A DNA stretch of 30,008 nt from a virus (taxonomy: Duplodnaviria; Caudoviricetes): the IMG/VR virus record IMGVR_UViG_3300025671_000342, positions 1 to 30,008 of that record; one strand, given 5' to 3'. Positions 17,216-20,848 of this stretch are shown here, piece by piece; position 1 is the first letter of the stretch; each line of letters starts with the position of its first letter. Under the pieces are notes generated by a model, which was not told where the DNA came from, ran no database searches, and saw only the letters and a list, made by a program, of their open reading frames with translations. The position numbers and the translations under genes were made by a program.

Positions 17216-17356
17216 ATGAGCCGTCATGTGTCAGTCGTGATGAGCGACGATTTGTTTGCTAAAATGGATGCGGCGAGGGGGCGTGAGTCAAAATCCTCGT
17301 TCATCAATCACATTATTAGCGAATATTTCAACAAACAAAAGAAGGAGGATGATTAA
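17216..17356 (+). CDS. Ribbon-helix-helix (CopG/Arc-like) DNA-binding protein, 46 aa, not in the ORF track
   Basis: MSRHVSVVMSDDLFAKMDAARGRESKSSFINHIISEYFNKQKKEDD: alternating beta strand, helix, turn, SxSxxI helix. Confidence 0.75.
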   Translation: MSRHVSVVMSDDLFAKMDAARGRESKSSFINHIISEYFNKQKKEDD

Positions 17357-17358
17357 AA

Positions 17359-17805
17359 ATGCAAGAAATGAAACCACCTGTTCCGCCTTGGGCGATGGAT
17401 GAAAACCGAATTGACATTAACCTAATTGCTATGTTGTTGTGGCAATCATTGTTGGTCGGCACTGCTGTTGGGGTATCACACTTGGGGTGGTATTTGCCTG
17501 ATGCGAGTGCGGGCGAATTGGGGCTTCAATTTGGTTTGATTTGTTTTGGATTTTTGTGCCTTTCAATGGTTCTGTTTCATGTGGGCGGGCTTCGGGATAG
17601 CCTCGCCATGCGTGCGGAATTCGCTCAAGAATCCCGCTATGACAAGTGGCAAACACAACAGGCTCGCCTTCAAGCACGAAGAATGCGAAAATATACGGGG
17701 GGCAATCAGGATTTTTACAACGGCAATTACGGGCAACAGCAATCAACCACATTTACCGTTCCCGTTCAAACCGAAGAGTCCAAAAAAGAACCTGAACAGC
17801 AATAA
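17359..17805 (+). CDS. Membrane protein with two predicted TM helices
   Basis: GGAGG SD; hydrophobic segments INLIAMLLWQSLLVGTAVGV and LGLQFGLICFGFLCLSMVLF. Confidence 0.8.
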   Translation: MQEMKPPVPPWAMDENRIDINLIAMLLWQSLLVGTAVGVSHLGWYLPDASAGELGLQFGLICFGFLCLSMVLFHVGGLRDSLAMRAEFAQESRYDKWQTQQARLQARRMRKYTGGNQDFYNGNYGQQQSTTFTVPVQTEESKKEPEQQ

Positions 17806-17818
17806 CTGAGGCATTGTC

Positions 17819-18043
17819 ATGGCTTGGCCGTTTAACACGCAACAAGAAAGACAGGCGGAAGCGATGGCGAGCATCCTCGCTGAAAATGCCTATGAGCGAA
17901 GGCTTGAGCGCATGACTTGGACAATCAAAGCAATTCTCGCCTTCTTGGTTGGTGCTTCGCTTTCGTTTCTTGTAATGGTCGGACTTGATGCGTTTTGGCA
18001 AATCACACCAACATCCGTATGGGAATGGATGTTTGGTGCGTGA
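17819..18043 (+). CDS. Small single-TM membrane protein
   Basis: AILAFLVGASLSFLVMVGL; in operon. Confidence 0.75.
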   Translation: MAWPFNTQQERQAEAMASILAENAYERRLERMTWTIKAILAFLVGASLSFLVMVGLDAFWQITPTSVWEWMFGA

Positions 18044-18048
18044 TTTGA

Positions 18049-18777
18049 ATGTCATCGTGGATGTTTGTTGGGCATCTGTTGCTTGGTTCAGCCCAATTGG
18101 GATCATACATTTACAGAATCCTAAAACCCCACAAATTTGGGGTTTATGGCCCATCTATGTCGGGTAAAACGACTTTAGACCAATACCTCACAGTGCCGGG
18201 CGACATTGAGCCGATACCGTTAGCACTCCGCACAACACACGCCATGAAGCATGGGCAATTTACCATGCCTCACACAACAAAAAAACAGGTGAGATGGAAC
18301 GGTGAAAAAATTCCCATTTCAACCGCTGATTTTGGCGGTCAAGCACGCTATTGGAATATGTGGGCTGAGGACATGGTTGGGCGCAATATCAGCATTGTTT
18401 TCTATGTCGTTGATCACCGAATCCTACAATCCCAATACCTGTTGGGAGAAGCCGTTGGGGGTTTGAAATACCTTGTGGACATTATGACGAACACCAAATA
18501 CCCAAAGTCCTTCAATCGCTATTTGAAGAAAAAGGCGAAAATTTTCAAACCAAAAGTCGTGTGCTTGTTGGTGAACAAAATGGATTTGTGGTGGGATATT
18601 GATTCTCAAAGGATGTGGGATGAAGGCATGAAGCGACAACACCCTTTTGTGTTGCCTTTTCAAGAGGAAATGAGGCGTTTGCGTAAAGCGGGAATTGCTA
18701 CGAATGTTGAGGCTATGTCAGCCCAATATGGATTGAATGTTGAGCGTGCTATTTATGACACGGTTCAAATGTTGTGA
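18049..18777 (+). CDS. Ras-superfamily (Arf/Sar-like) small GTPase
   Basis: G1 GPSMSGKTT, G3 DFGGQ...W, VFYVVD, G4 LLVNKMD, G5 MSAQ; hydrophobic N-terminal helix. Confidence 0.85.
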   Translation: MSSWMFVGHLLLGSAQLGSYIYRILKPHKFGVYGPSMSGKTTLDQYLTVPGDIEPIPLALRTTHAMKHGQFTMPHTTKKQVRWNGEKIPISTADFGGQARYWNMWAEDMVGRNISIVFYVVDHRILQSQYLLGEAVGGLKYLVDIMTNTKYPKSFNRYLKKKAKIFKPKVVCLLVNKMDLWWDIDSQRMWDEGMKRQHPFVLPFQEEMRRLRKAGIATNVEAMSAQYGLNVERAIYDTVQML

Positions 18778-18810
18778 GGGGGAAACCATTTTGAATATGT
18801 TAGGACTCAC

Positions 18811-19734
18811 ATGGTTCGGAGGGAGTCTATGCGTATGAACCCATTCGCTCGTGGCGGGATGTCGCTCAACGGCTTATCGGATGGCGATTTGAGAACCCTT
18901 TCATCCCAAACGGGGATTGCCTTTGAATTTCTCAAAGCACAACAACGGGCTGAAATGGCTTCATCAGGGTCACAGGGTGCAGGTATGGATCAAGAAATTG
19001 TCATTCCTACGGTTGAAATCAAATTGATTACCAACCCCAAAAATCCTGTAAAGGCACGAAAGAAAAACATCAAAATGCTTCGCAAGGCTCTCCGACCACC
19101 AAATTACAATTTGGGTTTATTCAAGGTGTATCGCTACAATGCGGCACACGAGTGCGCCTGTTGTGGTGTGGATGTGAGGCGTTTCCTTGAGGGGGATAAT
19201 GCTTATCACCACATTAACGATGAGCGAACAGGATTGTCATTGGCTGACATTTATTGGTTTGATGAGGACACTCAACAAGCACGAAAGCCTCATGCACGCA
19301 CGCATGGCGATCACGGGGATGAAATGTCAAGCACGCTTTGCCCTGCACATTTGCACATTTACCACACCCTTCGGTGCATGATTGAAGAACACACTCTTGA
19401 AGAAGAAGGATTCTCAAAGGTATCAAAGGGAACGCGCTTCATGCGTGTGCCGGGCTTTTCGGGGTCGTCAAAGGCACAGAACCGTTCAACCCCTGAATCA
19501 TTGTTGAAATACGCTGAATTTTTCAACATGATTCAACAAGACGCACAACATTCAAAGGGAGTGACTTTAACCCAACATCCTAATCCTGTTTCGGGTGTAG
19601 CGGATTTGGTGACGGTGACTTTTGATTTGCGAGCCTTACAAATGGAACAAATTGCTCAACAACAGCAAATGGTGGGCATCACACCACAACAAGTGAATAC
19701 AGCGATGATGCAGGAAAAAATGGTCGCACAATAG
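18811..19734 (+). CDS. Hypothetical protein with Cys/His motifs (possible Zn finger)
   Basis: Long ORF; HECACC...LCPAHLHIYH; alternative start 18829 after GGAGG. Confidence 0.75.
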   Translation: MVRRESMRMNPFARGGMSLNGLSDGDLRTLSSQTGIAFEFLKAQQRAEMASSGSQGAGMDQEIVIPTVEIKLITNPKNPVKARKKNIKMLRKALRPPNYNLGLFKVYRYNAAHECACCGVDVRRFLEGDNAYHHINDERTGLSLADIYWFDEDTQQARKPHARTHGDHGDEMSSTLCPAHLHIYHTLRCMIEEHTLEEEGFSKVSKGTRFMRVPGFSGSSKAQNRSTPESLLKYAEFFNMIQQDAQHSKGVTLTQHPNPVSGVADLVTVTFDLRALQMEQIAQQQQMVGITPQQVNTAMMQEKMVAQ

Positions 19735-19742
19735 GTGATAAT

Positions 19743-20393
19743 ATGGGATTGTTTGGAGGAAATAAAACAGATAGCACGACCACTTTTGGTGGTGGGCAAA
19801 TGGGACAGTCTAACATGATGGGCATGGGCATGGGCATGGGCATGGGCAACATGGGCATGGGTGGCTACGGCATGGATCCAACCATGATGATGATGCAATC
19901 CCAAAATCCAATGATGCAACAGGCGGCAAACGACCCTGTGATAGCAACCTCTAAAATGCTTCAAATGTATGACCCAATGTCCATGTTCATTGTATCGCAA
20001 AATTTGCCGATGCTCATGGAATTGATGGGTGAAATTATGCTTATGTGCATGAAAGACTTCTTTTCAAGTGTCAATTTCAAACAAGAAGGTGATGCTATCA
20101 AATTGGATGCGGGAACAATGCCTTCCCAATTACAAACCCTTTCAAGTGAAAATTTGGCTTTGACGCTTCAAAAGGTTCAATCCCAAGCACAGCAAATCCT
20201 CAACCAAAACCAACAGCAAATGCAAATGTTCCTCATGGCTCATCAACAAGGGGGCGGGATGATGCAACAGAATCAACCCGGTTTCTTTGGAAGCCTTCTT
20301 GGTGGTATGCTTGGTAATCAAGTCCAACAACAAGGCGGTATGGGCAACATGATGAAAACAGGTGCGGCCATCGGTGGAACGGCACTTTTGTGA
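19743..20393 (+). CDS. Met/Gln/Gly-rich low-complexity protein
   Basis: GGTGA SD; MG repeats and Q-rich tracts. Confidence 0.8.
   Translation: MGLFGGNKTDSTTTFGGGQMGQSNMMGMGMGMGMGNMGMGGYGMDPTMMMMQSQNPMMQQAANDPVIATSKMLQMYDPMSMFIVSQNLPMLMELMGEIMLMCMKDFFSSVNFKQEGDAIKLDAGTMPSQLQTLSSENLALTLQKVQSQAQQILNQNQQQMQMFLMAHQQGGGMMQQNQPGFFGSLLGGMLGNQVQQQGGMGNMMKTGAAIGGTALL
19818..19862 (+). repeat. (ATGGGC)n coding microsatellite (Met-Gly repeats)
   Basis: Five perfect units, then AAC and two more units (the last is ATGGGT). Confidence 0.9.
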
Positions 20394-20403
20394 GGTGTGA
20401 TAA

Positions 20404-20652
20404 ATGGCGGAAGAACGAAACAAAGAGGCTGAAATCAATTGGGCGAGTGCGAGTGTCAATTTGCTAAGCCCGCAAAAAATGCTCGTTGAAAGTGCAACCA
20501 TGATCTTCATCATTTCATTTATCCTTGTGGGATTTTTGATTATGGTGTGGAAAGGCCCTGAAATGTCCACGAGTCAAATCATGGGCTTTTTCTTTGGAAT
20601 GTTATTCACTTTCACGGTGGCTGTGCGTCAATATTCTTCCTTTCGGTATTGA
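20404..20652 (+). CDS. Small membrane protein with two TM helices
   Basis: GAGGTG SD; MIFIISFILVGFLIMVW and IMGFFFGMLFTFTVAV. Confidence 0.8.
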   Translation: MAEERNKEAEINWASASVNLLSPQKMLVESATMIFIISFILVGFLIMVWKGPEMSTSQIMGFFFGMLFTFTVAVRQYSSFRY

Positions 20653-20848
20653 GGCGAACAGGAGTCAATGGCAACCTCAAACGGTGGAACAGCCTCTAAA
20701 ATCCCAACCACTACAAGAAAAGGTCGTTGTCAAAAAGGAATTCCTTGATAGTGACCGTTGTAAAGGCGTGACAAGGGCGGGTGAGCCGTGTCGTAAAGAG
20801 GCTATCCATAATGGATATTGCTATCACCATCGGCAACCAAATAAATGA
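20645..20848 (+). CDS. C3H Zn-finger coding segment; start unclear (possible +1 frameshift extension of the previous gene, or GTG 20684)
   Basis: RCKGVTRAGEPCRKEAIHNGYCYHH (C-x3-T-x2-G-x2-C...C-x2-H). Confidence 0.55.
   Translation, partial: GIEANRSQWQPQTVEQPLKSQPLQEKVVVKKEFLDSDRCKGVTRAGEPCRKEAIHNGYCYHHRQPNK

Follow-up and report, generated by a model that had tools for sequence, protein, structure and literature searches.

The stretch of DNA analysed here (the window) comprises positions 1 to 30,008 of the IMG/VR virus record IMGVR_UViG_3300025671_000342, and it is a fragment of a tailed magrovirus, that is, a Poseidoniales virus, most likely of group A (Apasviridae), a label that comes from gene content and not from a tree. 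Between positions 17216 and 20848 the window carries a run of genes which a sequence-only reading had described as a nine-part operon, led by a ribbon-helix-helix (RHH) regulator and arranged around an Arf/Ras-like small GTPase. Our main finding is that the conserved unit consists of five genes and not of nine parts: in order, a protein with two transmembrane segments (2-TM), a protein with one (1-TM), the small GTPase, a Cys/His protein, and a Met/Gln/Gly-rich (M/Q/G) protein. This cassette is real, deeply conserved, and apparently undescribed, and it is common to viruses of a single host group, the Marine Group II archaea, some of them tailed and others probably tail-less. We propose, with a probability of roughly 40%, that the five core genes encode a machine, timed by GTP, which breaches the membrane of the host so that progeny can leave. 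Judged by comparison with known systems, the gene system appears to fit no described one, the GTPase itself is a member of a known superfamily, and the function is put forward as a proposal.

The eight open reading frames (ORFs) called at 17216..20848 were all recovered on the + strand, spaced by 2-47 nt and with the last two overlapping. Core gene 1 (17359..17805, +) encodes a 2-TM protein with hydrophobic segments from residues 22 and 60 and a charged, Gln-rich tail; its topology is holin-like, it belongs to no family, and it was found in 75/75 group-A-like and 76/76 group-B-like loci, with group D linking the A and B forms. Core gene 2 (17819..18043, +) encodes a 74-aa single-TM protein with a polar N-terminal helix and a Trp-rich C-terminus (78/78 and 77/77 loci), and its homology across groups is weak but consistent, with E-values of 7e-5 to 0.047 in group D. 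Core gene 3 (18049..18777, +) encodes the 242-aa GTPase, recognised by its motifs, fold, and profile match. Core gene 4 (18811..19734, +, with a start perhaps at 18829) encodes the 307-aa Cys/His protein with a predicted Cys3-His zinc site (80/80 and 74/74 loci), and core gene 5 (19743..20393, +) encodes the 216-aa M/Q/G protein, which has a conserved helical middle and Gly-rich hydrophobic ends (79/79 and 70/70 loci; profile-profile (HH) probability with group D 87-96). The membrane topologies of the sequence-only reading were upheld by hydropathy, which gave two segments for the protein at 17359, one at 17819, two at 20404, and none for the GTPase, and the M/Q/G richness noted there amounts to 46% of the residues. 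An XhlA likeness of the 1-TM protein was dropped, as it appeared at E 0.066 in only 1/43 members.

Synteny across related viruses had been suggested as a check, with a lack of co-conservation as a refuting outcome; that outcome did not occur, and the five genes are indeed co-conserved in A-like, B-like, and D genomes. They stand in the same order in 73/74 group-A-like and 66/66 group-B-like loci with long-enough flanks; the family models were built from the counted A and B loci, so that presence is partly circular but order is not. The order also holds in 7/7 group-D records, which were searched with models from groups A and B only. The group-A-like set is the best 80 of 258 IMG/VR relatives and holds 73 distinct GTPase sequences; one locus is identical to the window (L016) and three are near-identical, so the loci are not all independent. 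The group-B-like set consists of 80 of 140 loci. Among 1.84 billion representatives, a profile search found 86 matches, including a 31%-identical form of the GTPase from a second lineage, whose split PolB suggests that it is group B1. When the A and B profiles were compared, the probabilities were 99.9 for the GTPase, 96.3 for the Cys/His protein, and 95.5 for the M/Q/G protein; for neither of the two membrane genes did the direct comparison reach significance (E 0.017 and 0.36). With group D as a bridge, the best cluster of each of the five families is its positional counterpart. These sequence comparisons argue that all five genes are homologous across groups A, B, and D, weakly so for the two membrane genes. 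In every group the cassette shares its strand and genome arm with the virion genes: it precedes the terminase in group A, lies in group B between the genes for the major capsid protein and the tail tube, and is found among candidate virion genes in group D.

No relative of the GTPase was found at E<=0.001 in 200 other Poseidoniales genomes (the one hit in 201 is a virus contig, and all are incomplete assemblies), which indicates that the virus brings its own switch. A search of annotated phages and plasmids, in a phage set without a close magrovirus, also returned no match for the GTPase. Three short contigs in Parvibaculum and Promethearchaeati bins (L095, L096, L097) carry the same viral gene run, and the copies in these bins were therefore rejected as cellular GTPases and taken as mis-binned virus DNA; the three contigs could be misread as cellular or Asgard GTPases. 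Two homologues bear the name 'GTPase SAR1 family protein' in a database. We found no description of the cassette in the literature on magroviruses, Marine Group II (MGII) viruses, small GTPases of archaeal viruses, and group D, a survey to which subscription journals, Nishimura 2017, and Zhou 2023 did not belong. The string 'GTP' is absent from the main texts of PMC11706807, PMC5434244, and PMC10160649 and from two small supplements of PMC11706807, the large annotation tables being outside this scope.

The third set of GTPase relatives adjoins a thermosome gene and lies on elements that also encode a resolvase, PolB, and an RNA polymerase subunit of the Rpb1 type. This is the gene content described for magrovirus group D, which the part of PMC5434244 used here reports as lacking capsid, portal, and terminase. 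We collected group-D records by an unrelated conserved gene, which gave 14 loci and 10 searchable records (among the group-D records are G215, with loci L259-L265, G205, with L224-L229, G206, and G210-G214), and the GTPase was present in all 7 records >45 kb, while 3 fragments <12 kb had no match. The terminase search found nothing in 7 group-D records, including the complete, terminally repeated 140,336-bp G215, and was positive in the tailed control genome G003; in those group-D records that were tried, searches for a portal and for an HK97 capsid likewise came up empty. A PHROG scan of 77/162 ORFs of G215 gave no capsid, true portal, or tail-tube family. Two apparent matches in G215 were rejected, a 'terminase' (phrog_2666) that falls on a short packaging-type ATPase and a 'portal' that overlaps a Nudix domain, and one weak tail-connector match lies on a large fibre-like protein. 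The short ATPase of group D (214-258 aa; L227:11420-12133, minus strand, and L265:18480-19121) is of the sphaerolipovirus type. Among 50,697 phage records it matches only the packaging ATPases of the haloarchaeal, tail-less viruses SH1, HHIV-2, and HCIV-1, and the comparison with the HCIV-1 ATPase (HH probability 97.4, E 1.3e-11) places it with the FtsK/A32-type enzymes. Two conserved proteins of about 300 aa, candidates for a jelly-roll major capsid protein (P0222 and P0223; among 217 clusters, no Pfam match), had no sequence match to HCIV-1 VP4/VP7 or to the PDB. Group D probably consists of large tail-less viruses and not of plasmids. The combination of a sphaerolipovirus-type ATPase with no terminase match is a side result on a long-unplaced magrovirus group. 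As a separate observation, a membrane protein of G205 (L229:6881-7543, minus strand) has a weak N-terminal v-SNARE match (E 6e-4, under the cut-off), which is probably a coiled-coil artefact.

The sequence-only reading had recognised the G1, G3, G4, and G5 motifs in the GTPase, and all of them are present, namely G1 at residues 34-41, G3 (DFGGQ) at 94-98, G4 (NKMD) at 176-179, and G5 (SAQ) at 224-226; we additionally found G2 at Thr62. Twelve positions (G34, G39, K40, T41, R61, T62, D94, G97, W105, N176, K177, and D179) are invariant in 29/29 homologues which had not been picked by motif and are 44-71% identical. The AlphaFold model (pLDDT 75.7, pTM 0.75) has the six-stranded G-domain fold and gave Foldseek matches with Rho and Rab first, all 500 of those listed being at E<=0.001. 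On these sequence and model grounds, membership of the product of 18049-18777 in the Ras superfamily can be regarded as secure, the subfamily is not secure, and GTP binding and hydrolysis are predicted from its motifs.

The Arf label was less robust. The likeness to the Arf family (Arf6, Arl8, Sar1, SR-beta, and the Asgard ArfR structures 8OUN/8OUM) includes the best PDB sequence, the fold scores, the DxxGQ..(F/Y)..xW signature, and an N-terminal helix. The best PDB sequence for the GTPase profile is ArfR 8OUN (E 9e-7; a wider profile gave 1.5e-8, with Arl8 and Rab33 as the next matches), and VIA-align scored Arf6 at Z 15.2 (root-mean-square deviation 2.5, 160 residues aligned), Loki Rag at 14.8, Sar1 at 14.7, and SR-beta at 14.3, with a maximum Z of 15.3. 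In switch II, the signature DxxGQxx(F/Y)RxxW is present, with F/Y101 in 42/42 and W105 in 41/42 sequences, and its Gln varies. However, the viral GTPase is about 55 residues longer than Arf proteins, with three insertions; its N-terminal helix has 24-28 residues compared with about 15; it has an Arg before the G2 Thr and does not keep the catalytic Gln; its Rag fold score is tied with those of the Arf family; and it has fixed viral partners. It also stands on its own branch in both trees; in one of them, for which the comparison set was 30 small GTPases of one Asgard bin, labelled from sequence features, with no eukaryotic rows, the viral GTPases and five environmental proteins form one well-supported long branch. 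Grouping with 3 ArfR-like rows was weakly rejected by the approximately unbiased test (p-AU 0.037; 30 rows in quick mode, with a long branch and one Asgard genome), and grouping with Rag-, ArfL-, and MglA-like rows was not rejected (p-AU 0.07, 0.09, and 0.29). Only part of the Arf features listed in the portion of Vargova et al. (bioRxiv 10.1101/2024.02.28.582541) consulted here is present, and the protein is not filed as Arf. The five environmental small GTPases, which have hydrophobic N-termini (P0147, P0166, P0177, P0180, and P0181), branch beside the viral clade; the genomic context of the distant relatives P0106 and P0147 was searched for and not found. Within the clade, both trees join the group-D GTPases to those of group A and set group B apart (support 96/94 for P0108 and kin, and 92), which points to an exchange of the block between virus types, with a root that rests on distant outgroups.

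A feature that may explain how this GTPase works is an Arg-Thr pair about 20 residues after the P-loop, which occurs in 73/73 A-like, 54/54 B-like, and 7/7 D distinct sequences (134/134 in all; the set was picked by its G1 and G4 pattern and missed one locus). The residue after DxxG varies among the same 134 sequences, of which 78 have Gln, 31 Glu, 14 Asp, and 11 His; it is His in the group-D GTPases, and Sar1 likewise has His there. In MglA, Arg53, which directly precedes the switch-I Thr54, is an intrinsic arginine finger that the partner only positions, according to the section of PMC3199381 relied on here. Given this precedent and the invariant pair, we propose that the viral GTPase would carry its own catalytic arginine (Arg61). 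The Thr next to it was equated with the G2 Thr by alignment and not by structure, switch I being poorly modelled (pLDDT 48-65). The likeness to MglA thus includes the Arg directly before the switch-I Thr and the grouping with one MglA-like row, which was not rejected. The viral protein differs from MglA in that G3 keeps its Asp, an N-terminal helix is present, and the position of Gln82, essential in MglA, varies; unlike the MglA-MglB pair, the cassette has no Roadblock (MglB) match among its neighbours. A Lys/Arg-rich insertion before the fifth strand (near residues 157-167) occurs in all three lineages and could bind acidic lipids.

Of the soluble partners, the Cys/His protein invites a functional guess. 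C109, C171, and H174 are invariant in 53/53 group A/B rows, the zinc ligands being partly lost in some group-D copies. Its model (pLDDT 81.6) had no PDB match at E<=0.001, a best Z of 4.6, and one viral entry at E 3e-5 in fold searches, and the ESM Atlas gave no usable match for this protein or the M/Q/G protein. Because its gene always adjoins that of the GTPase and the Cys/Cys/His set is invariant in groups A and B, the Cys/His protein may be a natural regulator of the adjoining GTPase, by analogy with the zinc protein ArvC, which is proposed for ArvA (PMC10927574). A complex prediction of GTPase residues 15-242 with Cys/His residues 55-275 scored 0.00, which is evidence neither way.

The block occurs in viruses whose packaging motors are unrelated, as lysis genes do among phages. 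In the late arm of a 106-kb syntenic relative of the window (G001), predicted membrane segments occur only in the tape measure and three cassette proteins. The sequence-only reading had seen no recognisable holin or endolysin in the window, and we likewise found no such families among 54 G001 proteins (PHROGs) and 80 G003 proteins (Pfam), which are subsets of the ORFs called in these two near-complete relatives. Magroviruses are predicted to be lytic (PMC12999244), and the lysis players of archaeal tailed viruses are described as completely uncharacterised in the portion of PMC10791045 cited here. It is for this set of reasons, namely the late-arm position, the scarcity of other membrane proteins there, the lack of a host copy, the travel between packaging motors, the missing holin and endolysin matches, and the uncharacterised lysis, that we rank an exit system first. 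In such a system, the block would be expressed late in infection, and the two small membrane proteins would build up in the membrane of the host, as holins do. When bound to GTP, the GTPase would use its long N-terminal helix and its basic insertion to dock on the membrane and would gate the assembly of the small membrane proteins, with GTP hydrolysis through its own switch-I arginine; the Cys/His protein would be the likely regulator of the GTPase, and the M/Q/G protein might serve as a scaffold or pore partner. Like a holin-endolysin cassette, the block clusters small proteins of the late region that have charged tails and one or two membrane segments, and it occurs across virion types; it differs in having no holin or endolysin family match and in containing a GTPase and two soluble partners.

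Several points weigh against this proposal. The membrane proteins of the block have no holin-family match, to our knowledge no known lysis system uses a GTPase, five genes are a large outfit for making a hole, and the late timing follows from genome position only. Two metatranscriptomes containing 5-6% of the words yielded nothing beyond short contigs of relatives at low depth, which say nothing about timing or strand. HVTV-1 and HCTV-5, the closest cultured tailed relatives, had no GTPase match, so the tailed viruses of archaea do not use the block as a general solution. The hydrophobic N-terminal helix that the sequence-only reading saw is predicted with low confidence (residues 3-25, pLDDT about 50); it is no TM anchor (19-residue hydropathy <1.6 in 41/42 sequences) and is only weakly amphipathic, with a median moment of 0.37, a charge of +2, and 6/42 sequences beating shuffles (p<0.05). 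Group D is reported to be enriched in the cell fraction and possibly plasmid-like (PMC10160649), so a non-lytic role fits as well. A bolder form of the exit proposal holds that this is the missing exit machine of MGII viruses, in which lysis or egress is clocked by a viral small GTPase with a built-in arginine finger and which was swapped between two viral realms, the tailed magroviruses and the 140-kb, tail-less, RNA-polymerase-encoding group D as the largest known sphaerolipovirus relatives; we consider it rather doubtful.

An unlikely explanation that still has to be taken seriously is that the block reorganises the infected cell and does not breach it, acting as a membrane-anchored assembly or replication site or by stopping division and changing cell shape. 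A switch GTPase with a regulator and a scaffold suits spatial organisation, as MglA and MglB set polarity in the account of PMC3199381 drawn on above, and any role directed at the host would fit a block that is shared across virion types. Within group A, conservation is higher in the Cys/His protein (67-78%) than in the GTPase (45-69%), and the small N-terminal helical bundle of the Cys/His protein resembles DNA-binding bundles at Z 4.6, but matches at this level are within the stated noise range of the tool. The block also lies among late virion genes and not in the replication arm.

It is improbable that the block drives non-lytic budding of vesicles with virions or genomes, in the manner of the haloarchaeal GTPase ArvA. 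As far as PMC10927574 is used here, vesicle formation requires ArvA, which has an amphipathic helix at its N-terminus and a neighbour with a zinc finger that is its proposed GTPase-activating protein, and the ArvA-ArvB-ArvC (OapABC) system of Euryarchaeota resembles the cassette in having an archaeal small GTPase with an N-terminal helix, conserved downstream partners, and one zinc protein. However, that system is cellular, its partners carry DUF2073 (ArvB) and DUF2072 (ArvC), neither of which is found among the cassette neighbours (Pfam E<=0.1), and the Arv operon as described in the same portion has no membrane-protein genes upstream. Tailed viruses need a free tail to infect. The cell-fraction enrichment of group D would suit budding, whereas free virions of the tailed magroviruses are abundant (PMC10160649).

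A typical superinfection-exclusion gene encodes a small membrane protein and has a self-regulating promoter, and DNA pilot proteins resemble the Gly/Gln-rich protein in make-up. A role at entry or in defence, either as superinfection exclusion or as virion-packed membrane channels for DNA delivery, is nevertheless quite improbable. Group A does have an RHH gene and its own promoter-like element, but in group B the block is without RHH and, with ribosome-binding sites, reads on from the capsid genes; the block is fixed, unlike exclusion genes, which are usually patchy, and an ejection device is hardly something that terminase-less viruses would have in common with tailed ones. The block is also unlikely to be part of a head or tail because it is shared across virion types, and the idea that the genes are assembly factors of a tailed virion with incidental membrane segments, which the position of the group B block would suit, is very improbable and already largely refuted by the whole block in all seven larger group-D records without terminase, portal, or HK97 capsid matches.

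Small GTPases on mobile elements are also known from the Arf-like GTPases of Asgard integrated elements (10.1101/2024.03.22.586370) and the mimivirus Rab (PDB 5XC5), but these are close to host-type proteins, and the parts of the sources seen describe no conserved membrane cassette. Plasmid pR1SE, considered as a further carrier of a small GTPase, was dropped from this comparison, the word being absent from PMC10818511.

The other genes of the run are lineage add-ons outside the conserved unit. The RHH gene (17216..17356, +, 46 aa), which had been thought to lead the operon, is accessory and is found in 49/73 group-A-like and 0/76 group-B-like loci; its product fits the RHH sequence pattern but has no Pfam match, and its PHROG match is a family of unknown function (E 0.011). 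The promoter proposed before it stood in part. A TATA-position element at 17180..17195 (+), 26-31 nt before the RHH start, is likely an archaeal promoter from which a leaderless mRNA would be made, and most RHH-bearing relatives have a similar element at the same distance (by eye), but a sigma-70 scan was at chance level (4 sites vs 6.3 expected). TGACA/TGGCA-like pentamers are repeated around this element in relatives (window 17170-17215) and may be an operator for self-regulation of the RHH gene. The second small 2-TM protein (20404..20652, +, 82 aa) has a basic C-terminus and a borderline second segment (hydropathy 1.53), and its gene is fixed in group-A-like loci only (79/79 vs 0/69 group-B-like). 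The zinc finger (20594..20848, +) was borne out as a small DUF5763 protein (Pfam PF19067, E 4.1e-10, above the cut-off); this accessory gene occurs in 51/79 group-A-like and 0/65 group-B-like loci, and its start is uncertain, the ATG of homologues being ATT at 20633 in the window. The run does not end at 20848, as had been assumed: a gene for a Cys/His and helix-turn-helix protein (20868..21578, +) starts 19 nt further on and is linked to the cassette in 79/79 group-A-like and 0/63 group-B-like loci. It lies outside the core cassette and is a candidate small terminase, a look-alike of which is seen by eye upstream of the large terminase in G003 (L186:10571-11152, minus strand).

The assignment of the window rests on its gene context. 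The thermosome subunit gene (9492..11123, - strand; Pfam Cpn60_TCP1, E 1e-162) is a marker of magrovirus groups A and D according to the part of PMC5434244 cited above, which makes group A most likely; the Apasviridae profile is given in PMC12999244. The N-terminal part of the large terminase lies at 29466..30008 (+; PHROG 38, E 2.3e-28). The relative G001 (L094) is a contig in a Poseidoniales genome record and has genes for terminase, portal, prohead protease, capsid, and tape measure; of the Magrovirales traits (head-tail module, archaeal replisome, and Poseidoniales host), we rely on the window terminase and these head-tail genes. A short tag of the AFxxAWxxxK type stands at the ends of or inside dozens of window ORFs (552-9506, 11105-17176, and 21996-24796) and on many G001 ORFs, and G003 has a parallel MSWxxxLK start; the tag may be a capsid-loading or protease signal. 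Its absence from the cassette, which the sequence-only reading had pointed out, was confirmed (0/8 ORFs of the region vs 4/4 tagged flanking ORFs tested). The window also encodes an HMGL-like enzyme (5246-6256, Pfam E 5.8e-21), also found in G001 and a candidate auxiliary metabolic gene; a pair of Gp88-like (radical-SAM-type) paralogues (11105-12295 and 16103-17176), which are located directly upstream of the cassette and whose copy number differs among relatives; and a DUF6321 protein (21996-22466, E 3.6e-18), which is common to many bacterial phages and patchy among relatives.

Marine Group II archaea belong to the surface ocean's most abundant microbes, and the exit from murein-less cells is an open question for tailed archaeal viruses, at least as posed in the part of PMC10791045 used here. 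If our proposal is true, a GTP switch in a membrane module of a prokaryotic virus would be a new kind of lysis clock, and the viral GTPase would be a new branch of the small-GTPase superfamily outside the Asgard archaea.

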